From positions 1-28,867 of IMG/VR virus record IMGVR_UViG_3300025300_000071: a stretch of 28,867 nucleotides of DNA. One strand, written 5' to 3'. Made by a program: the position numbers and the translations under genes. The stretch's first letter is position 1, and each line of letters opens with the position of its first letter. The stretch is from a virus. Taxonomy: Duplodnaviria > Caudoviricetes. Of the stretch, positions 8,899 to 25,414 are shown in pieces. The notes under the pieces are model-generated. The model was given only the letters and a program-made list of their open reading frames with translations, was not told the DNA's origin and made no database searches.

Positions 8899-11800
8899 AT
8901 GGGATTAGAAACCACTCCAGATGGTCGTCAAGTTTGGCTACCTGATGATTTATCTGAGGAGCAAAAATTAAAAGCTCTGGAGAATTATATTGCCAACACT
9001 CCCCTTCAGGTTGAAGAGGAAGTGGAAGAAGAGGTAATTGAAACTCCTGATGAAGTGGTATCTGAAGAAGTTATTGAAGAAGAATTCATACCTCCTGTGG
9101 GAAAAGTTCTTTCTGAAGATGAGAGGGGAAAGTTACGAACTGATTTGAAGATTGGTCCTGTAGAAGAGGGCGGATACGAACAAGCAGAATGGTTCGGAGA
9201 AACTACTAAAGCAGAAGGAGAAGATTTTTGGAGTCTTTTAGGTAAATCCTTTACTGGAGCCAGAACTGTTCTTGAAGAATGGTCCCCAAGGGGAGAAACT
9301 ACTTTAGATAACTTAAAGGAAATGGCTTTTCAGATTGACGCACTTGAAAACGAAGATGCCGAATTAAGAATGAAGGACATTCGAGGCACCTTAACAGATG
9401 ATGAGAGTTTACGTCTTCAAGAAATAGACAAGATATTAAATGGAAGCGGTAAGTCAGATGATGAAATAAAAGCAGATATAGCTGAAAGAATTACCTCGTT
9501 GCCACCCAGTTTTGAACCCAACATATACGGAGGAGCAGACCTTACCCAATTTGGCATTGAGGTTGAGAAGCAAGAGAAGGGACTTTATAAATCTTTAGAA
9601 GAACGGGGTATTGAGTCGGCTCGTAGATCAAATGCTTTAGCTGAAGCTGAACTAAGTAATGCTTCTAAGTATATCTTTACCGCAGGACAGGGAAGTTGGG
9701 AAAACACAAGGGAAGCTTTTCGTGATTTGACTGCTCCTCAAAAAATGGATTTTATGGGTGATGTGGTGGGGATGTCTGGAGCATCTACGCTTTTAATACT
9801 TATGGCTAGTTTTGGAACTGCGGGTGCGTTGCGTTTAGCAGGTTATTCTGGATTGACAAACTTTCTCGGCACAGGATTAGCAACAGGGGCAGCTTCTTAT
9901 GGCGTAGAAAACGTACATTCTTTTTATGAATATCTTAAAGCAGAAGGATTGGACGTAACTGATCGTAATTCAATTATTGATACCTTTAATAATGAAGAAC
10001 TCATAGAAGAAGCAGAAGATTATGCGAATACCAGAGGCTTGATAATTGGTTCCATTGACGGATTAACAGGTGGTTTAGCAACTAAAATCATGGCTCCTAC
10101 AATAGTAACTAGAAGTACCAGAGGCATCATGCCTTATATTTATAAGCCTACAGGAGCTACCTTACCCAGAGCAGGTTTCCGAGCAGTAGGTGATACTCCT
10201 TCTCCCGCCAATCGCTTTATGACAAATTTTGCGTTACAAACTCCCGCACAAGTAGCTCTTCCAGCAGGAGCTGAATACTTTGCCCAGTTAGCTACTTTGG
10301 AAGAAGGACAATTAATTAATTTTGGAGAAGTATTAGCGGAAGGTATCGGTGAATTTGCTTTCGTACCTGCTGATATATCCTTGGGTATGGTTGCTACCGC
10401 ACAGGCGTATAAGAATTATTCACCTAAAGAGGAATCAAATAGAAAAGTAAACAAAGCTGTTAATAGGAGGATGGAACAAGCCAAGGATAAAGGATTGGGT
10501 CATTTAGCCCATAAGGGGGATGCCGTTCTTGATCCCCAAAGTAACGATAGCATCATACGAACTACAGGAATTCCTTTCTTTGAAAGAGCTTGGGATGTCT
10601 ATAATCAATACTGGGACAGTATTCCTACATTTGCTAAAAGCAGTAAACCAAACCTTATAGCCCCTAATCAGTTTTATGTAGGTGCTGACGGTCAGGGCGG
10701 TTATCAGATAAAGGATAGCCATGACAGAAAGGTGGGCGAATCCTTTGCAACAGAGGAAGAAGCTGCGGGTGTATCAGGTGCTTTCAATATCATCAGCCAA
10801 TCCCGTTATTCTAATGAACTTGTATCAGATACGCTGGAATCACTGGGAATACAAGACAGTGAATTCGGTGTAGAGTTAGGTTCCCTCCTTAACGATCCTT
10901 ATTTCAATACCGTAGAACTGGGTGAATTGGAAACCAATGATATTGGAATTTCAAATCAAGCAGCCTTTGAACGTATATTGAATGCTGTAGGCAGAGATGC
11001 TACCACCTTTGACATACAGGTTATTAAAAAAGCTCTTAGCGAAAAAGACTTCAATATCTTAATGAAGGCTAAAGCTGATTCTCTCAGCGACAGGACACGG
11101 GGTGTTAATTCACCTACGAGAGTCAGTCGTAAAATGTTTGAGAACCTCAAGAAAAAACTCAATGTTAATATTGATACAAAATCTGATACATTCAAGAGAC
11201 TCGCCCAGAGACTCACTGGGGAAAGCAATTACAATAAACTTTCCAATGCCCAGAAATCATTTATCTACTCATTTTTGAGTAGCCTTCCAGCACACGAAGG
11301 GGATACCATTTCTCTCCCCGATCTCACTTCCAGAACTTGGCTTAAAGAAGACTACAGCAGAGTTGTAGATTCCCTCTTTAGCGGCAATCCCCCCACTCTT
11401 AATCACATAGCTAGTATGTTGGGCTTAGACCCTAATAATATAAATAGCAAGCGTACTGCTACCCGTTTAAGAAACGATTTGATTAGTGCTGGAATCATCA
11501 ATAAGAAGGGAACCAAGTACGTTTTGAATAAGGGCGGTGCATGGTCGCTCAACAGACAAACCCAACAAGATTTAGCCACTGATCCAAATGCACAAGAAAA
11601 TCTAAAACAAAATTTAGATTATTTAGAGAACCTGAAAAAAGCGTTGGTGGAAATGAATATACCTGAAATTACTCTTAACGTAGTTCCTATGCTGGATAAT
11701 GAGATAGAAAGGGCACACAGCGTAAGGGATAGCGAGGTAACTGGTGTCTTCAATCCCGCTTTAAGAAAGATTATGTTGGACGTAGTTTCCGCAGTACGGT

Positions 11801-14800
11801 CTGCCAAAAACAAGACTGGTGAGGCAGACGTTACTTGGGGTGCTGTATATGAAGAACTACTAAAAACCCTAGCCCATGAATCTTGGCACGGTGCTGTGGA
11901 TATGGATTTGTTTAGTCCCAGTGAGAAGAAGAATTTCCTAGACTCCATTAAAACCAAAAAAATATCCCGTTCTCTAGTCAATGAAATATTCGGTGGGGAT
12001 AAAACAATGTTTATGAAATTAAGGGACAGGTTAGGTCGTGCCCCGACTTACATGGATGTTGCCGAAATTGTTTATGCTGGCACCACTCCAGAGAACATAC
12101 AAGAAGAAGCATCAGCCATGCTCATAGAGGATATACATGAAGGTAAAAGCAAGGTGGTAGGTCAACCCCGTGCTTTGGCAAATCGTTTTACCAAGTTCCT
12201 TGAAAGTATTTATCGTGGCTTTGATGAAGCTGGATTCCAGACTACAGAAGACATTTACGACAAGCTTATCTCAGGAGAGATAGGGGCACGAACACGAACT
12301 GATGTTACGAAAGAAGAGGTAACAGTAGAGAGTTATGATGAATTCGGCAGACCCCAAGAGACGTATCAGATATCTCGTCCAGCGAGTAGAACTACTGTTG
12401 AAATGGAAAGGCATTACCAACAGACATATTATTCAATGTTATCTGCTGCTACAGGGCAGTCAGTGGATACAGACGACACTTTCTCGGAAGAAGCTGATGT
12501 TACAACTCCCATTCCTACCCGTCCTTTATCAGATATTCCTAATCTAAAATTTAAACTAAGTGAAGAGCAGAGACGACCTACTTCGCTAACTTCCGAGTTC
12601 ACACTTTCTGCCCGTTCTGGTGAGTACGGCAATAATCTCGCCCACATTCCTCAAGTTATTTTTGAGAAAGGCATTATTGGCGATCCTAATATGACTAGAA
12701 GATTTGGTAGGGAAGTACAGAATAAGGAAGTAGGGGCAACTCAAAGTCAACTCTATCAGTACACTCAAGAAAATCTTGCCGAGAAAGGCTTCCCAGAACA
12801 CCCCACTCTCTTTAGAGTTTATGGAGTAGGAGATGTGGACAGAAGCATCTCCACTAACGTAGTTACCAATAACAGGTCAGAAGCGGAAATGATGGCGAAT
12901 GGCTTTGTCAATCCTCCTTTTGAAATCAAGGGCGACAGGTCGAAGATAACTGCATATACGATTGATCGTCCCTCTGTAGTTTTAAATAATGCCATTCTCT
13001 TTGACGGAAGGATTCCAGCTTGGGCACAAGCCGCTTATGAGGGTACTGAATATTTGCACGTTGGTTCAAGCAGATTGATCACAGCACCCAGTCAAGAAAT
13101 AGAATACGAATCCAAAGAACCTCCGACTACTCCAGATAAAAGAATATTTACTACGGGAACGGGTAAAGTTATTCCTGTCCCTCCACGCAAACCTTTCCCA
13201 ATAATGAAGTACAAGCTATCTGGTCTGACGGGAGACTTATTTGATATGGCTGATGCCTATGATCCCGATAAAGCAGCATGGGCAATAGGAACTCCTTTTG
13301 GTTCTGAACTTTATAGTGATGTATTCAATGTATTAAACAAAAGTCCTAACCGTTTAGAGCAATCATTGGATAATCTTAGGAACTCGACTAATAATCCAGA
13401 ATTAACTGAGGCTCAAGTAGATAAAGCAGCACAGGAAATAATAGATATTACACAAGTATCTCTTGATGCTTTCCCGCAACAGATCAGGGTTTACCGAGGG
13501 GGTATTCAGGGTGGTGCAGTAATTGAGTCAGATGAAGTGGTGCCTGTCACATTGAGTCCTGAAGTAGCCAAAGCATTTGCATATATGAGAAAAGATGAAG
13601 TGGGCAGGTTTAGCTTGCAATCTTGGCTAATAGACAAGAGCGAAGTCTTGGTCAATATAGACGCATTTCAGCCTTTAGGTTATTGGGAAAATGAATTATT
13701 AGTAGATGCAGACGGTTTAAGGATTGCTAAAGAAACGGCTGAAGCACAAGGCAGTTTAGATTATGTAGATTACACGGCTCCAGAAACACTCGATAGAGTC
13801 AAAGATATAGTTACCCGATTTATGGGTATGACTCAAGTATCTCTTGATGCTTCCCCGCAACAGCTCAAAGCACAACAGAAAATATTTGCAGAAGAGTTTG
13901 GTCTACCTACTGTGACTGCGACAGAAGAACAAGTTAATAAAACATTAGCTGATTTTAGTTTCCCATTTAATTTCTTTCCAGAAGCATCTGCCAGTGAAAC
14001 CTTATTGCGTGAAATAGGAGAACCCGCCATAAAGAATGCCCCCACATACGCAGAGAGAGAAAGAACAGTACCAAGAAATACTTACCGCTTCCCTTACGGA
14101 GAGAACTTTGCTGAATACATGGCACAACCCGAAGAGAAAAGAAGGGGTAAATGGATTACTGACAGGTTAAAACAATATCCAACTCCTGCTCACATGATAG
14201 GGCAGAAGGTTAAATATAAGTTAGCCTACCCTACTACTGATCAGGAATTTATTGAGAGTAAAAGAAATTTATTAGAGTTATTGGAATCAGGAACCCCTGT
14301 TAATGATCTCATGGAACATCCCGCTATAGTAGAGGGAGAAAGACGCATGATGGAAATTCCCGAAACTATTGATAAATACCTACAAAGGTATGGAGAAAAT
14401 TGGGCACTTAATCCTTCTTACCTAAACAACCGGGAATTTGTTATTGACGGTAAGAAAGTTAAAGGAGTGAAGAATGTTATTGATGCCACTATAAAGAAAG
14501 CAGAAAGCTATGCAGACGGCAGAGTGGGTAATAATAAAATCGCTTGGTACTTTCTAGGACCTCCTGCTGCGGGTAAATCATATTTTGCTGAGAGCGTAGC
14601 AAGAGAGAATAATTTAGCTATTATTGATAATGATGATGTTAAACGCTTTATTCCAGAATACGGAGATGGTATAGGGGCAAATGCGGTTCATAGAGAAGCT
14701 TCTGTATTATCTAGGCTTGCCACACAAGAAATGGTCAGAAGGAATAAAGATATACTTATTCCAAAAGTGGGTGGGATTGGTAAAAGAGCACAAGTTTTAG

Positions 14801-17800
14801 ATGATGTGCGTAATCTAAAAGAATTAGGCTATACAGTTAATATTGCACTTGTAGAGGTTACTGAACCTTTAGTTCAAGCTAGATCATCTTTAAGATTTAC
14901 TCAAACAGGTAGATTAGTTCCTCCTTCTTACATAGCCAGTGTAGGAAATACTCCTACTGACACTTATCATAGGGTAAAATATATAACACATGACGGATTT
15001 GCATGGATAGACAATAATGGCAAACAAAGACAAGAAATCGTTAGAGAGGACACAGGTATCCTACCCGCTTCTATCGGTAGAGAACGAGGAACTCTGGGAG
15101 AAAGAATCAGAGAGACTAGCGACTCTCCTATTCAAGAAGTTGTATCAGAAGCCTTCTCAGAAACAAGAGCAGTAAGTATAGAAGAAGCCATCGAGGGTGC
15201 CAAGGGCATCAACGAAAGGCTTGTCTCTGCGGGGTACACCGCTAAATTCAACCTTAACGCTTCGGCAGATGCAATCCATATTGCCTATACGCAGGAGCTA
15301 ACCAAAGATACTGTAGTAGAAGTACCGAATGCCCTCCGTAAGAAGTATTCTCTTAAGGGTGGCAAGAAATTAGATGAAGTTGCCGAGAGGCTTATCAGTA
15401 GGCTTACCATTAGGGACGAGCTTGCTGAAGATATTACGATAGGGGAAAGTATTTTAAAAGCTACGGAGTTTTTTACTATAGAAAACCTTCGTGAACAACT
15501 GGTGGATCAGTATGCCACATTTGCTACCAGTGAAGCCGTAGCACAAAGAGCAAGAGGTTTTGGTGAGGAACAGCTACTGGCAAGTACCTCTGCTATATCT
15601 GCTTTAATGTTTTCAGATAGATCAGGAGAGATTTGGAAAGGTGCTTTCATGGAAGGCACCGTAGTTTATGATAAGGGTTATGTTCATGTAGCAAAGTTAT
15701 CCCCTATGGACGGCAAACCTGTGATACCCCCTATGGAATTCATGCGTCCTTTATTCAGAAATCCAAATAATTTATGGCTTTGGAATGCTATTAGAGTGGT
15801 AAAACGTGAAACTCGATTTGATCAGGAAGGAAGAAAGATCAGAATTACTGCACAAGACAAGAAAGATGCGAAAAAGATTTTAAAGGAAAATCCTTGGTTA
15901 AATGATGTTTCGAAAGCTTACGACAGGTGGGACAAGCACATTGTTAAATTCTTGGTGGATACGCAGGTACTGGATGAAACAACCGCTAAACAGTGGACAG
16001 CTAATGCAGATTATTTCCCCTTCTATCGTGTACTCGCTATTGACGAAGGAGATGATGTCAGGACGAGGGGACCTCAACTCTTTCGAGGTATGCACCCATT
16101 CGGTAAGAATATATTTATCAAAGCCAAGGGTAGTGAAACCAAGAAAACCCTCGATCCAATAACGGCTATCTCCCAGAATCTAAGGGCAGCTATTGTCTTG
16201 GGAATGAAGAATGTAGCAGCTAACCGAGTTATGAGGAACATGATTGATGCGGGACAGGCAGAGCAGGTTCCGTTAAGTTCCAAGGATTCAAGGGTAGTAA
16301 AGACCAGAGTGGGTGGAAAGAACAAAGCCTTTAGGGTATTGGACAGACCTTTGTTTGAAGCCTTCCAGAATTTTGCTGACGGTCAAATGCCTATGGGTGG
16401 ATTTTTAAGTGCGGCAGCTTTTCCCAAGCGGGTTGTCAGTGAATCCATTACCAGAGTTCCCGTGTTCTGGGCAAAACAAGTAATGAGAGACGGATTAACT
16501 GCGGGATCACTGTTGGGTACGGGTGTCCTGTCAACGGTTTTCCGCTCTATGGGTAATGCAGTGCAATTAGCTAATGGTAAATTATTGGCACAGGTTCCCG
16601 GAGTGACTGAAGAAATGACGTTACCAGAAGGGTATTTTAAATTAAGAAATGCTGGGGTTGTTACCCGTTATGATCAGGTAATTGCTGATTACGAAGATGC
16701 CGACAAGGTAGTTAAAGAGGCTTATCGTCAATCGGGAATACGAAACCTTGCATCGGTGGAAGGCATAAAAGGATTACCTTTCGATATTCTTATGGGTGTA
16801 TGGGATTTATTAGGACAGGGTACTATTATTACGGATACCTCGACTCGCTTAGTGGTATATAACGAAATTTTAAAGGAAACTGGGGACGAAGCTGAAGCTA
16901 TTTTCCAAGCTATGGAAATACTTAACTTTACCCGTAGGGGTAAGAATCGTCTGGTTCAGATTTTATCTACGCTGTTACCCTTCCAGAACCCAAGGTGGCA
17001 AGGGATGGATGTTTTTGCCCGTGCTTATACAGGTACTTACGGTAAGAAAGCTAAAGGGGGTAAACCCCTTACCAAGCGAGAAAGACAAACGGCAGTTTGG
17101 TTCCGAACCGCTATGTTTATGTCACTTACCCCATTGTATTACATGGCAGTCAAGGATTCTGATGAATATAAGGAGATGTCGGAGGAAGAAAGGGAACTGT
17201 ATTGGATCATACCCGGTTTTAAGAAGTGGCTTGGATTCACACCGAGAATACCCAAACCGTTTGAGTTGGGACTTATGTTTGGAACTTTACCAGAAATGCT
17301 TTTACGTTTAATGGATGAAAGAGAAACGTGGCGGGATGTACGGGAAGCCATGTGGCGACAAGCCACAGGCACATTGAAATTGGCACCTTGGGAAATACAA
17401 GCGACTAAACCTGTAGTAGAAGTAGCCTTTAATTATGATTTCTTCACAGGACAACCTGTCGTTTCAGAAAGACCTTCTGCTCCTACTGATCCTAAATTAC
17501 AACGCAGGGCAACTACTCCGAATGCCTATGTGGAGGTAGGAGAAGCTTTGAATATGTCTCCCTTGCAGGTGCAAAAGATATGGGAGGGATATACGGGACC
17601 TTACGGTGCTTATATAGCTATGGTAGCTGACGGTCTGATAACCAATTATGTTAATCCAGATGCTCCGACCAAGCCTTCTACGGGGTGGGAGAAGTCATTA
17701 TTCATTGGTGGTCTGGTTCATCCCGCAGAGTCGAGTGGCTTGGTTAATGAGTTCTATAAATTGCAAGACCTAACGGATGAATTTCTAGCTAATTCAAAGG

Positions 17801-18144
17801 CATTGGAAGATTTAATAGAGGTAGGAGACAAGAGAGCCTATCACTATGACGACATATATCAGCTTCAATATGTGGATACAGTAAAAGACCTTAAAAAAGA
17901 ATTGAATCAAATAGCTTCTCTCGACAAGGGCGAAAATCTTGCAGAGATTAGAGAACTGCAACAACTGATCATCAATGATAACGACAGGACTCCAGAGGAG
18001 AAAAGGGAAATAATCCTCGAAATCAAAAACCTGCGTAATGAATTACTCCGTGAGGCACGAACACTTAGGGTAGCTTTAGAGAAAGGTATGTTTGATCAGA
18101 TAGAAGAATTCGTAGAAGAAAGAGAACGAGACAGAAACAGATAA
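8899..18144 (+). CDS. Giant polyvalent ejection protein: TM region, HExxH metallopeptidase, two ART-like modules, Zeta-toxin-like kinase, LPD38
   Basis: HESWH 11875-11889; VYRG...VTLSPEVAKAFA...ENE 13489-13695; GPPAAGKS 14557-14580 with IDNDDVK and RFTQTGRLVP; C-terminal IPKPFELG and NYDFFTGQPVV typical of LPD38. Confidence 0.85.
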   Translation: MGLETTPDGRQVWLPDDLSEEQKLKALENYIANTPLQVEEEVEEEVIETPDEVVSEEVIEEEFIPPVGKVLSEDERGKLRTDLKIGPVEEGGYEQAEWFGETTKAEGEDFWSLLGKSFTGARTVLEEWSPRGETTLDNLKEMAFQIDALENEDAELRMKDIRGTLTDDESLRLQEIDKILNGSGKSDDEIKADIAERITSLPPSFEPNIYGGADLTQFGIEVEKQEKGLYKSLEERGIESARRSNALAEAELSNASKYIFTAGQGSWENTREAFRDLTAPQKMDFMGDVVGMSGASTLLILMASFGTAGALRLAGYSGLTNFLGTGLATGAASYGVENVHSFYEYLKAEGLDVTDRNSIIDTFNNEELIEEAEDYANTRGLIIGSIDGLTGGLATKIMAPTIVTRSTRGIMPYIYKPTGATLPRAGFRAVGDTPSPANRFMTNFALQTPAQVALPAGAEYFAQLATLEEGQLINFGEVLAEGIGEFAFVPADISLGMVATAQAYKNYSPKEESNRKVNKAVNRRMEQAKDKGLGHLAHKGDAVLDPQSNDSIIRTTGIPFFERAWDVYNQYWDSIPTFAKSSKPNLIAPNQFYVGADGQGGYQIKDSHDRKVGESFATEEEAAGVSGAFNIISQSRYSNELVSDTLESLGIQDSEFGVELGSLLNDPYFNTVELGELETNDIGISNQAAFERILNAVGRDATTFDIQVIKKALSEKDFNILMKAKADSLSDRTRGVNSPTRVSRKMFENLKKKLNVNIDTKSDTFKRLAQRLTGESNYNKLSNAQKSFIYSFLSSLPAHEGDTISLPDLTSRTWLKEDYSRVVDSLFSGNPPTLNHIASMLGLDPNNINSKRTATRLRNDLISAGIINKKGTKYVLNKGGAWSLNRQTQQDLATDPNAQENLKQNLDYLENLKKALVEMNIPEITLNVVPMLDNEIERAHSVRDSEVTGVFNPALRKIMLDVVSAVRSAKNKTGEADVTWGAVYEELLKTLAHESWHGAVDMDLFSPSEKKNFLDSIKTKKISRSLVNEIFGGDKTMFMKLRDRLGRAPTYMDVAEIVYAGTTPENIQEEASAMLIEDIHEGKSKVVGQPRALANRFTKFLESIYRGFDEAGFQTTEDIYDKLISGEIGARTRTDVTKEEVTVESYDEFGRPQETYQISRPASRTTVEMERHYQQTYYSMLSAATGQSVDTDDTFSEEADVTTPIPTRPLSDIPNLKFKLSEEQRRPTSLTSEFTLSARSGEYGNNLAHIPQVIFEKGIIGDPNMTRRFGREVQNKEVGATQSQLYQYTQENLAEKGFPEHPTLFRVYGVGDVDRSISTNVVTNNRSEAEMMANGFVNPPFEIKGDRSKITAYTIDRPSVVLNNAILFDGRIPAWAQAAYEGTEYLHVGSSRLITAPSQEIEYESKEPPTTPDKRIFTTGTGKVIPVPPRKPFPIMKYKLSGLTGDLFDMADAYDPDKAAWAIGTPFGSELYSDVFNVLNKSPNRLEQSLDNLRNSTNNPELTEAQVDKAAQEIIDITQVSLDAFPQQIRVYRGGIQGGAVIESDEVVPVTLSPEVAKAFAYMRKDEVGRFSLQSWLIDKSEVLVNIDAFQPLGYWENELLVDADGLRIAKETAEAQGSLDYVDYTAPETLDRVKDIVTRFMGMTQVSLDASPQQLKAQQKIFAEEFGLPTVTATEEQVNKTLADFSFPFNFFPEASASETLLREIGEPAIKNAPTYAERERTVPRNTYRFPYGENFAEYMAQPEEKRRGKWITDRLKQYPTPAHMIGQKVKYKLAYPTTDQEFIESKRNLLELLESGTPVNDLMEHPAIVEGERRMMEIPETIDKYLQRYGENWALNPSYLNNREFVIDGKKVKGVKNVIDATIKKAESYADGRVGNNKIAWYFLGPPAAGKSYFAESVARENNLAIIDNDDVKRFIPEYGDGIGANAVHREASVLSRLATQEMVRRNKDILIPKVGGIGKRAQVLDDVRNLKELGYTVNIALVEVTEPLVQARSSLRFTQTGRLVPPSYIASVGNTPTDTYHRVKYITHDGFAWIDNNGKQRQEIVREDTGILPASIGRERGTLGERIRETSDSPIQEVVSEAFSETRAVSIEEAIEGAKGINERLVSAGYTAKFNLNASADAIHIAYTQELTKDTVVEVPNALRKKYSLKGGKKLDEVAERLISRLTIRDELAEDITIGESILKATEFFTIENLREQLVDQYATFATSEAVAQRARGFGEEQLLASTSAISALMFSDRSGEIWKGAFMEGTVVYDKGYVHVAKLSPMDGKPVIPPMEFMRPLFRNPNNLWLWNAIRVVKRETRFDQEGRKIRITAQDKKDAKKILKENPWLNDVSKAYDRWDKHIVKFLVDTQVLDETTAKQWTANADYFPFYRVLAIDEGDDVRTRGPQLFRGMHPFGKNIFIKAKGSETKKTLDPITAISQNLRAAIVLGMKNVAANRVMRNMIDAGQAEQVPLSSKDSRVVKTRVGGKNKAFRVLDRPLFEAFQNFADGQMPMGGFLSAAAFPKRVVSESITRVPVFWAKQVMRDGLTAGSLLGTGVLSTVFRSMGNAVQLANGKLLAQVPGVTEEMTLPEGYFKLRNAGVVTRYDQVIADYEDADKVVKEAYRQSGIRNLASVEGIKGLPFDILMGVWDLLGQGTIITDTSTRLVVYNEILKETGDEAEAIFQAMEILNFTRRGKNRLVQILSTLLPFQNPRWQGMDVFARAYTGTYGKKAKGGKPLTKRERQTAVWFRTAMFMSLTPLYYMAVKDSDEYKEMSEEERELYWIIPGFKKWLGFTPRIPKPFELGLMFGTLPEMLLRLMDERETWRDVREAMWRQATGTLKLAPWEIQATKPVVEVAFNYDFFTGQPVVSERPSAPTDPKLQRRATTPNAYVEVGEALNMSPLQVQKIWEGYTGPYGAYIAMVADGLITNYVNPDAPTKPSTGWEKSLFIGGLVHPAESSGLVNEFYKLQDLTDEFLANSKALEDLIEVGDKRAYHYDDIYQLQYVDTVKDLKKELNQIASLDKGENLAEIRELQQLIINDNDRTPEEKREIILEIKNLRNELLREARTLRVALEKGMFDQIEEFVEERERDRNR
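13453..13867 (+). repeat. 34-bp direct repeat pair (13453-13486 and 13834-13867, 32/34 identical)
   Basis: caagtatctcttgatgcttYcccgcaacagMtca; copies are 381 bp apart, in frame. Confidence 0.92.
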
Positions 18145-23870: not shown

Positions 23871-24072
23871 ACAGGTGGAAAAGGCACGGGAGCGACTGGC
23901 ACGGGAACGGCGCTGGCGTGAATTCAAATACATCCACGCTAACAACGGCGTAGTGGAGACGAAGCTACGCGACGGCACGAGCATCCGCGAGGACACGGCG
24001 AGCGGCAAGGTCGAGGTCGAACTCGGCAAGCTGTCCTACGGCGAAGTCATGAAGGTATGGAAGGGTGGCTAG
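23854..24072 (+). CDS. Hypothetical protein
   Basis: AGGGAG RBS before ATG 23854; overlaps the methyltransferase start. Confidence 0.7.
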   Translation: MTEYNEQVEKARERLARERRWREFKYIHANNGVVETKLRDGTSIREDTASGKVEVELGKLSYGEVMKVWKGG

Positions 24073-25414
24073 ACTGAGGGTACTGGATTTATTCTCCGGC
24101 ATCGGCGGCTTCAGCCTCGGGCTGGAGGCGACGGGTGGTTTCGAGGTGGTAGCCCACTGCGAAATTGAACCCTTCTGCCAGGAAATCCTGCACCGTTACT
24201 GGCCGCAGGTAAAATTATACAAAGACATTAAGGAGCTTAACTATGGACAATTGGAAACAGACGGACTTATTTCAAAACAAGGGGACATCGACCTCATCTG
24301 CGGAGGCTACCCGTGTCAGCCGTTTTCCGTCGCCGGACGTAAAGGCGGCGAAGAAGATCCGCGACACCTGTGGCCGGAATACTTTAGACTCATTAGAGAA
24401 CTACGTCCACGTTACGCCGTTGGAGAAAACGTGGGTGGACATATTCGACTCGGTTTGGATTCCGTCCTCGAGGATCTGGACAGCGAGAACTACACCGCGC
24501 GGTGCTTTAGTGTTGAAGCTGCGTGTATCGGCGCCCCGCACCGGCGCGAAAGAATCTTCTGGATCGCCGAAAGAGACGCAAGAGACGGGGATACCCGAGA
24601 TGTGGCTGAGTCCAAACGCGATGGATGCATTAGAAGCGAGAAGTCCAGAAGCTCTAAAGAAACAATACGACAAAAACAGGAAGGGGAGGAAAACACATTC
24701 AACTCTAAGAGAGCAAGTAGTTTATCCACAACCGAGCCGCATGTGGCTCACACCGAGAGCTTCGAGCGGCGGTCCAGGCAAAAATCCGGACAATCCAAGA
24801 GGAATGCATCAGGGAAATGCACTGGAAACGGCAGTTCACATGTACCCGACTCCCCAGAAAATGTGGAGTACACCGACAGCTTTCGATGCGAACAATATAA
24901 TGAAACCGAGAAAGAAACATCCGGGAGGAGGTCAGAAACCTCCCTTGGGACAACAGGTTCACATGTGGCCGACCCCGAGAGTGAGTTCAGCGAACGGTCC
25001 GAGCCGGAAGGAAATAGCGGCGGGCAACCCCAAGCGCAGGCTGGAAACGGAAGTGGAGCTGTACCCGACTCCTCTCGTAAGGGATTGGAAGGGCGGACGT
25101 ACGCCGGAGACGCTGGAGCAGAGGGGACGCAAGCCCAGCAACTCACTGCCGGATCGGGTCAACGCAATGACGGGACGCTCGGCCCAGTTGAATCCTGGGT
25201 GGGTGACGGCACTTATGGGATTTCCGCGTGGGTGGACGGCTCCTGGGAACACGGACTCGAACGGGTCGGCGTCAACATCCCCCAGCGCAAGGCGCAACTG
25301 ATGGCGCTCGGCAATGCCGTGGTACCGCAACTGGTGGCTCTGGTGGGACACGCAATTCTGGAAAATCACGACACAATTGTTAGTGAAACGGAGGTAGAAA
25401 ATGAACGCGTTTAA
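24065..25414 (+). CDS. C5-cytosine DNA methyltransferase, alpha chain (motifs I-VIII and X)
   Basis: LDLFSGIGGF, GGYPCQPFS, ENV, HRRERIFWI, LGNAVVP; motif IX is absent in this frame. Confidence 0.93.
   Translation: MARLRVLDLFSGIGGFSLGLEATGGFEVVAHCEIEPFCQEILHRYWPQVKLYKDIKELNYGQLETDGLISKQGDIDLICGGYPCQPFSVAGRKGGEEDPRHLWPEYFRLIRELRPRYAVGENVGGHIRLGLDSVLEDLDSENYTARCFSVEAACIGAPHRRERIFWIAERDARDGDTRDVAESKRDGCIRSEKSRSSKETIRQKQEGEENTFNSKRASSLSTTEPHVAHTESFERRSRQKSGQSKRNASGKCTGNGSSHVPDSPENVEYTDSFRCEQYNETEKETSGRRSETSLGTTGSHVADPESEFSERSEPEGNSGGQPQAQAGNGSGAVPDSSRKGLEGRTYAGDAGAEGTQAQQLTAGSGQRNDGTLGPVESWVGDGTYGISAWVDGSWEHGLERVGVNIPQRKAQLMALGNAVVPQLVALVGHAILENHDTIVSETEVENERV
24243..25301 (+). CDS. Nested +1-frame methyltransferase beta chain (TRD-like repeats and motif IX)
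   Basis: AGGAG at 24231-24235, 7 nt before ATG; 352 open codons; repeated [WY]xTP modules; LNPGWVTALMGFPRGWT. Confidence 0.85.
   Translation: MDNWKQTDLFQNKGTSTSSAEATRVSRFPSPDVKAAKKIRDTCGRNTLDSLENYVHVTPLEKTWVDIFDSVWIPSSRIWTARTTPRGALVLKLRVSAPRTGAKESSGSPKETQETGIPEMWLSPNAMDALEARSPEALKKQYDKNRKGRKTHSTLREQVVYPQPSRMWLTPRASSGGPGKNPDNPRGMHQGNALETAVHMYPTPQKMWSTPTAFDANNIMKPRKKHPGGGQKPPLGQQVHMWPTPRVSSANGPSRKEIAAGNPKRRLETEVELYPTPLVRDWKGGRTPETLEQRGRKPSNSLPDRVNAMTGRSAQLNPGWVTALMGFPRGWTAPGNTDSNGSASTSPSARRN

Follow-up and report, generated by a model that had tools for sequence, protein, structure and literature searches.

The methylase gene of the phage DNA analysed here appears to encode a two-chain, multispecific anti-restriction methylase whose nested chain bears exchangeable modules predicted to read the target site; we put the probability of this reading at about 0.6. 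That the gene is a C5 methylase written in two frames can be held with high confidence. Judged from their sequence, the modules are probably DNA-recognition parts, and on balance each may well have a target of its own. Multispecificity is proposed because of the position of the modules, their type-specific conservation, the absence of repeats within arrays and the precedent of the Bacillus phages. The window (the whole stretch of DNA analysed, 28,867 nucleotides) is a 28.9-kb phage record that is ~51% complete and occurs in marine metagenomes; RNA runs share only 4–8% of its words. Within it the gene order is primase-helicase, methylase and small terminase subunit. On this reading the locus joins two devices that are described separately in the literature found, the two-chain methylase with dual frames (M.EcoHK31I) and the phage methylase with multiple TRDs. 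The literature searched, which did not extend to subscription journals or REBASE, contains no account of arrays of modules lying in a nested frame of a methylase gene.

The two predicted chains of the methylase gene

All features of the gene lie on the + strand. The catalytic chain, alpha (24065..25414, 449 aa), begins with a GTG codon that overlaps the stop of the upstream ORF. Alpha matches PF00145 (E 3e-40), phrog_363 (E 3e-70) and TIGR00675 (above cut-off), and the family profile matches residues 2-166 of M.HhaI (E 3e-24). Motifs I, IV (Pro-Cys), VI, VIII and X of PF00145 are all present in order. Motif IV (GGYPCQPFS, 24302..24328), which includes the catalytic Cys at 24314-24316, is invariant in 34/34 aligned alphas; motif VIII (HRRERIFW, 24539..24562) aligns with M.HhaI; and motif X (LGNAVVPQ..., 25307..25357), which aligns with both the relatives and M.HhaI, is found in all 70 closed alpha ORFs, 64 by pattern and 6 by eye. 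Motifs I-VIII are followed by a Ser/Glu/Gly-rich middle of 210 residues, a low-complexity read-through of the module array with a pN/pS >1; in the alignment a conserved W-E...R-V segment still stands between this middle and motif X.

The second chain, beta (24243..25301, 352 aa), lies in the +1 frame wholly inside alpha. It matches phrog_1008 (E 2e-18), as do 55/55 betas. Its ATG at 24243 stands 119 codons upstream of the array, 7 bases behind a Shine-Dalgarno-like AAGGAG (24230..24235), which is weak evidence alone because it also codes Lys-Glu in alpha; 76 of 81 loci have a word of this kind ahead of their first nested ATG. A predicted beta-hairpin at 24474..24524, whose residues W79, T84, P85, G87 and L89 are conserved in the alignment, is one of the two regions modelled with local confidence, the model of beta as a whole being of low confidence. 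Searches of beta against Pfam, NCBIfam and PADLOC returned nothing meaningful, PADLOC giving 0 matches for 55 betas, and an ESM Atlas search with beta returned unnamed viral clusters only. In Paenibacillus phage Diva (DIVA_49/DIVA_50, KP296791), a homologous nested ORF of the same family, PHROG 1008, carries three W-x-T-P modules; it is annotated as "g49 internal gene" and "hypothetical protein", and the modules are undescribed there. In one beta relative (P0084) the N-terminal part is interrupted by an in-frame insertion of a LAGLIDADG endonuclease domain (PF00961), which recalls the homing insertions in phage methylases described in PMC11855218.

Behind the array, beta contains the stretch LNPGWVTALMGFPRGWT (25188..25238), which is regarded as motif-IX-like on its position and on likeness by eye rather than on an HMM match. 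At loci with a closed alpha ORF, the pattern is present in 69/70 betas and 0/70 alphas. The stretch has a pN/pS of 0.16 in beta, and its L-x-P-x5-L spacing is, by eye, the same as that of SPbeta MtbP ahead of motif X. Recognition in C5 methylases lies between motifs VIII and IX according to PMC3404938, and the window modules fall there once beta's motif IX is counted. The same layout is described for M.EcoHK31I (YGGCCR), in which beta lies wholly inside alpha in another frame, with motifs I-VIII and X in alpha and IX in beta (PMC2836561, PMC3404938): in both cases a second same-strand ORF is placed inside alpha, and motif IX is in beta only. The two are likened by published layout. Here, profile searches of the neighbouring ORFs scanned found no nuclease family near the methylase. 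M.EcoHK31I methylates one site, whereas here beta bears a variable array under selection and the alpha middle is unconstrained.

The overlap is general among the relatives. A long +1 ORF is present in 80/80 kept viral loci (the best 80 of 331). From the best 79 of 229 genome loci, 66 were left after 6 duplicates and 7 loci without motif IV in view were dropped, and 62 of these 66 have motif IX in the +1 frame inside alpha; three others have an early alpha stop and one is frameshifted. The initial annotation had claimed that both frames stay open across the array, and this holds: the alpha and beta frames of the window gene are open and the third frame has 11 stops. When synonymous codons were redrawn under an unchanged nested protein, the array was expected to acquire 14.2 outer-frame stops, and none of 5,000 draws was open. 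Across motifs IV-VIII of 59 distinct segments, 413 stops would be expected in the beta frame and 0 are present, and the alpha frame has 0 stops in 7,595 module codons ahead of motif IX; past alpha's stop, 55 stops are found in 664 module codons (11 segments, 6 loci). These counts indicate that selection keeps the two frames open. It is the +1 (beta) frame that holds the information of the modules. The pN/pS of same-type modules is 0.16 in beta over all pairs (18,120 codons) and 0.18 over disjoint pairs (1,772 codons), values biased downward to some degree by module typing and alignment in the beta frame, compared with 2.2 in alpha and 1.0–1.2 in the third frame. The corresponding values for motifs IV-VIII are 0.33 in alpha and 0.75 in beta. 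The modules are thus real units under selection in the nested frame. Five copies of a nested methylase with identical scores (L113-L117) occur at different places on one Roseovarius MAG chromosome, as either a repeated prophage or an assembly artefact.

The module array and its turnover

The initial annotation had described an array of 5–6 modules. Its six starts were all recovered in one frame, +1 to the methylase ORF (24600 MWLSP, 24741 MWLTP, 24840 MYPTP, 24861 MWSTP, 24963 MWPTP and 25059 LYPTP), as were, in the same frame as the starts, its L-x-x-x-V ends (LREQV 24705, LETAV 24822, LGQQV 24945, LETEV 25041 and LPDRV 25146). Five of these starts open full modules, 19–44% identical pairwise, and the sixth opens only a 7-aa stub. 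The duplication reported at the junctions was also borne out, 24822-24853 and 25041-25072 being identical at 27/32 bases; in 20,000 in-frame pairs of 32-mers drawn at random within this ORF, the mean is 8.6 and the maximum 20 identical bases.

Module 1 (type E, 24600..24740, 47 aa) is also found in L087, L092, L094, L103, L106 and L110, and is 77–78% identical to modules of phages with an alpha core 65–66% identical. Ahead of it the window has nine additional beta codons (24573-24599) that are absent from most relatives. Module 2 (type a, 24741..24839, 33 aa) is closely matched by a module of L089, a contig from a Eubacteriales MAG (score 123 against a maximum of 51 in shuffles). It is followed by the stub MYPTPQK (24840..24860), which has the 27/32 copy of the module 5 junction and is likely the remnant of a deleted module. 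Module 3 (type b, 24861..24962, 34 aa) occurs only in the window and the near-identical copies L001 and L002, with no match above shuffled among 241 genome modules. Module 4 (type L, 24963..25058, 32 aa) is 78–81% identical in L004, L006, L009 and L012 and has no match among the same 241 modules. Module 5 (type e, 25059..25187), which measures 43 aa with its linker up to motif IX, recurs in L091, L097, L098, L100 and L101 and is the sole module of the L105 beta.

In the 80 viral relatives (the best of 331), 304 modules fell into about 45 types, an approximate count since the parse is pattern-based and some modules are missed or merged. The 72 complete loci carry 44 different arrays, none of which repeats a type (0/44), and simple tandem slippage was rejected on these grounds. 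The order of types is constant for 64/67 type pairs, and an order so nearly fixed is more easily explained by loss and by exchange that preserves order than by free shuffling. Among 57 loci, arrays are identical in 39/90 pairs with alpha cores at least 95% identical, in 2/359 pairs at 85–95% and in 0/1,147 below that; near-identical alpha cores bear different arrays, and type E is scattered across the alpha tree. The initial annotation had named invariant module content as one outcome that would speak against its reading, and both number and content vary among relatives. Three of the five window modules (types E, a and e) are found again in distant bacterial genome records, under the labels Bacillota, Bacteroidales, Opitutae and Hellea; where such labels come from MAGs they may belong to misbinned phage contigs.

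The unit of exchange runs from W-x-T-P through the L-x3-V tail. An L-x3-[VIA] tail is present in 373/417 distinct modules, compared with 108 in shuffles; the invariance of the T-P anchor is no evidence because it is fixed by the search pattern. The segment upstream of T-P goes along with the previous module (identity 0.80) rather than with the next (0.24, against a background of 0.25), which leaves the module without the N-terminal recognition half of a Bacillus-type TRD. Modules are also found behind motif IX in 59/116 long beta relatives, and these are under selection as well (pN/pS 0.23, 636 codons). Beta continues past motif IX, often past alpha's stop, in L015, L018, L021, L031, L047, L068, L069, L075, P0029 and P0040; such betas have up to 5–6 additional modules, and type J occurs both ahead of and behind motif IX. 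The initial annotation had also called the nested chain an exchangeable subunit. It is the modules that are exchanged and not the subunit alone, since the gene for the subunit lies inside the catalytic gene.

Loss of modules at the conserved junctions, another suggestion of the initial annotation, was seen in a natural variant and at exactly the pair of junctions it had named. A public metagenome contig of 1,428 bases from run X14 skips 24822-25040, with 0 differences to the window on both sides and a 10-base overlap at the joint. The missing 219 bp are flanked by the two duplicated junctions and amount to 73 codons, comprising the tail of module 2, the stub and modules 3 and 4. As the contig is identical elsewhere and lacks exactly 219 bp, the modules are really lost there; this loss is one contig in one run, variant joints having been scored over 8 of 24 listed runs. 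Assemblies of this kind use 31-base words, and the longest exact match between the two junctions is 13 bases, which makes assembly collapse unlikely. Two weaker in-frame joints were seen: 24572-24744 in 3/8 runs from 2 studies, with 19–31 bases on the short side, and 24599-24741 in 1/8 runs, with 28 bases on the short side. These drop module 1 in three runs and may come from related phages. Position 24572 is joined straight to module 2 in contigs of three runs, and others go on with another E-type module. The deletions seen take out inner or first modules and keep the last. No second donor array was found elsewhere in the 51%-complete record.

Predicted function of the modules

SPR and phi3T are multispecific C5 methyltransferases of Bacillus temperate phages, and the multispecific M.phiBssHII can use a TRD outside the usual region. 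With Bacillus phage enzymes such as SPbeta MtbP the window methylase has in common that it is an orphan enzyme of a phage, that short units with T-centred anchors follow one another in tandem from motif VIII to motif IX, and that an anti-restriction role is proposed for both. Arrays of recognition domains are described as an anti-restriction device of Bacillus phages in PMC12707154. The Bacillus enzymes are single chains with TL inside each domain, whereas here the units lie on a second chain in an overlapping frame and begin with W-x-T-P: several different short tandem units stand ahead of motif IX in the window methylase, and motifs I-X are divided between two polypeptides. The start of the modules resembles the TL consensus in part, with P-T-P-T fitting P(STCA)PT, but neither the (YFW)x(RK) ahead of it nor the I/L/V behind it is retained. 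According to PMC2413257, the 5' base is read in Bacillus-phage TRDs by residues that precede the TL motif on its N-terminal side. The multispecific methylase put forward in the initial annotation is supported in part by modules that are selected, variable and lost, while a unit without residues upstream of T-P departs from the Bacillus TRDs.

Neither sequence nor fold searches matched the modules to known target-recognition domains. PDB sequence searches with beta, with a last-module-plus-IX profile and with a 55-beta profile gave no C5-methylase match up to E 10, and hhalign of the last-module-plus-IX profile with SPbeta MtbP gave no match (probability 0.15%). AlphaFold2 produced no folded domain for the window beta (pLDDT 50, pTM 0.23) or the single-module L105 beta (pLDDT 59, pTM 0.26). 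Foldseek on the beta model found nothing, and the best VIA-align Z of 3.1 was no match; these fold-search nulls are uninformative either way because the chain was folded without its partner.

The methylase might have one specificity, which would reside in the alpha segment ahead of motif X or in beta's fixed part, with the modules adding only DNA affinity, processivity or a relaxation of specificity. The accounts in PMC2836561 and PMC3404938 assign the predicted TRD of M.EcoHK31I to alpha and not beta, and this reading would also suit the conserved W-E...R-V segment of alpha, the K/R/G-rich loops of the modules and their want of a segment upstream of the anchor. However, each type keeps its own loop across distant genomes and no array repeats a type, which would be needless for plain affinity boosters, and near-identical alpha cores are paired with different arrays; we regard a single specificity as unlikely. 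It is slightly more doubtful that only the module adjoining motif IX is active and that the rest are a translated reserve for recombination, by which each phage would be monospecific and the population would switch. Of the 16 types found in last position, 13 are not seen elsewhere ahead of motif IX and three are, a single-module beta (L105) exists, and junction deletions occur. Against such a reserve, purifying selection acts on inner modules and on those behind motif IX, the deletions seen spare the last module, and the common first and inner types A, B, C and E are never last. Modules that bind proteins rather than DNA, such as host defence proteins or the phage replication machinery, and merely ride on the methylase subunit would agree with units that are short, poorly folded and fast-turning, that match no known TRDs and that also stand behind motif IX in half or so of the long relatives (59/116). 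The modules are found chiefly in the interval from the motif VIII overlap to motif IX, are basic and have a TL-like anchor at their start, which makes this quite improbable. A single polypeptide made by programmed frameshifts, from alpha I-VIII into the +1 frame and back for motif X, with the overlap only apparent, is scarcely credible, since alpha is stop-free through the array and beta through motifs IV-VIII, the beta start is conserved, 0/116 long beta relatives have a catalytic motif, and the one gene in which alpha I-VIII run on in frame into the last module and motif IX (L121) seems damaged, its motif X being in a separate ORF. Natural single-chain fusions were found in 0/116 long beta relatives; L121 (879-1891, Paenibacillus macquariensis), in which a frameshift in the last module fuses alpha I-VIII to motif IX, was rejected as such a fusion because it is a frameshifted gene.

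If the locus is a multispecific two-chain methylase, beta would be made from its own start at 24243 and would bind alpha, thereby completing the small domain. One module at a time would then contact the DNA through its T-P anchor (likely a TL motif variant) and its K/R/G-rich loop, in the manner of the multispecific enzymes of Bacillus phages, and the 5' side would likely be read by a fixed part of alpha or beta. Modules are lost and exchanged at W-x-T-P boundaries in whole-codon steps that spare both frames. New phage DNA would be methylated at several sites against host restriction. Such a role in protecting phage DNA is suggested by the place of the enzyme behind a primase-helicase gene and by the lack of a recognisable nuclease. 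More tentatively, and at somewhat short of even odds, these loci may represent widespread, mostly unannotated phage cytosine methylases that draw on a plug-in library of at least 45 short modules, each reading DNA, on a second-frame chain. Each module of 30–50 residues would confer one target, would work before or behind motif IX and would move between phages of different bacterial phyla, with the catalytic frame serving as filler; this would serve both as a natural, programmable platform for methylation and as a rapidly changing defence against restriction. Should each module confer a target, many phage and prophage methylases would be half-annotated and have several specificities, the long "variable regions" of these methylases would have been interpreted in the wrong frame, and the conserved types of module would offer a ready table for a module-to-motif code. 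Overlapping genes can also tolerate the turnover of cassettes, as whole-codon gains and losses leave both frames intact.

The prophage orphan C5 methylases JCM7686_0772/2655 and ARM81ld_p31 are described as having relaxed specificity and protecting against many nucleases (PMC3925955, PMC5537653). ARM81ld_p31 was rejected as a member of the nested type, as it is a single chain of a different family without a long same-strand nested ORF. It contains about five short P-T-type repeats by eye (L085, 7674-9338, - strand), and its "relaxed" activity may be multispecificity. Depletion of candidate sites, a check proposed in the initial annotation, was found for GGCC (36 observed vs 115 expected), CCGG (62 vs 133) and CCAGG (30 vs 53) on both strands of the window, but it cannot name the targets because palindromes are low there in general (mean z -2.5). 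Also under-represented in the whole window are CTAG, ACGT, GATC and the non-palindromic CTTA/TAAG.

Elsewhere in the window, a gene at 8899-18144 (+ strand), behind that of a predicted DNA ejection protein, encodes a protein of 3081 aa with a Zeta-toxin-like P-loop domain (residues 1887-2018) and an LPD38 domain (2755-2915). It is likely a large polyvalent protein delivered with the phage genome.
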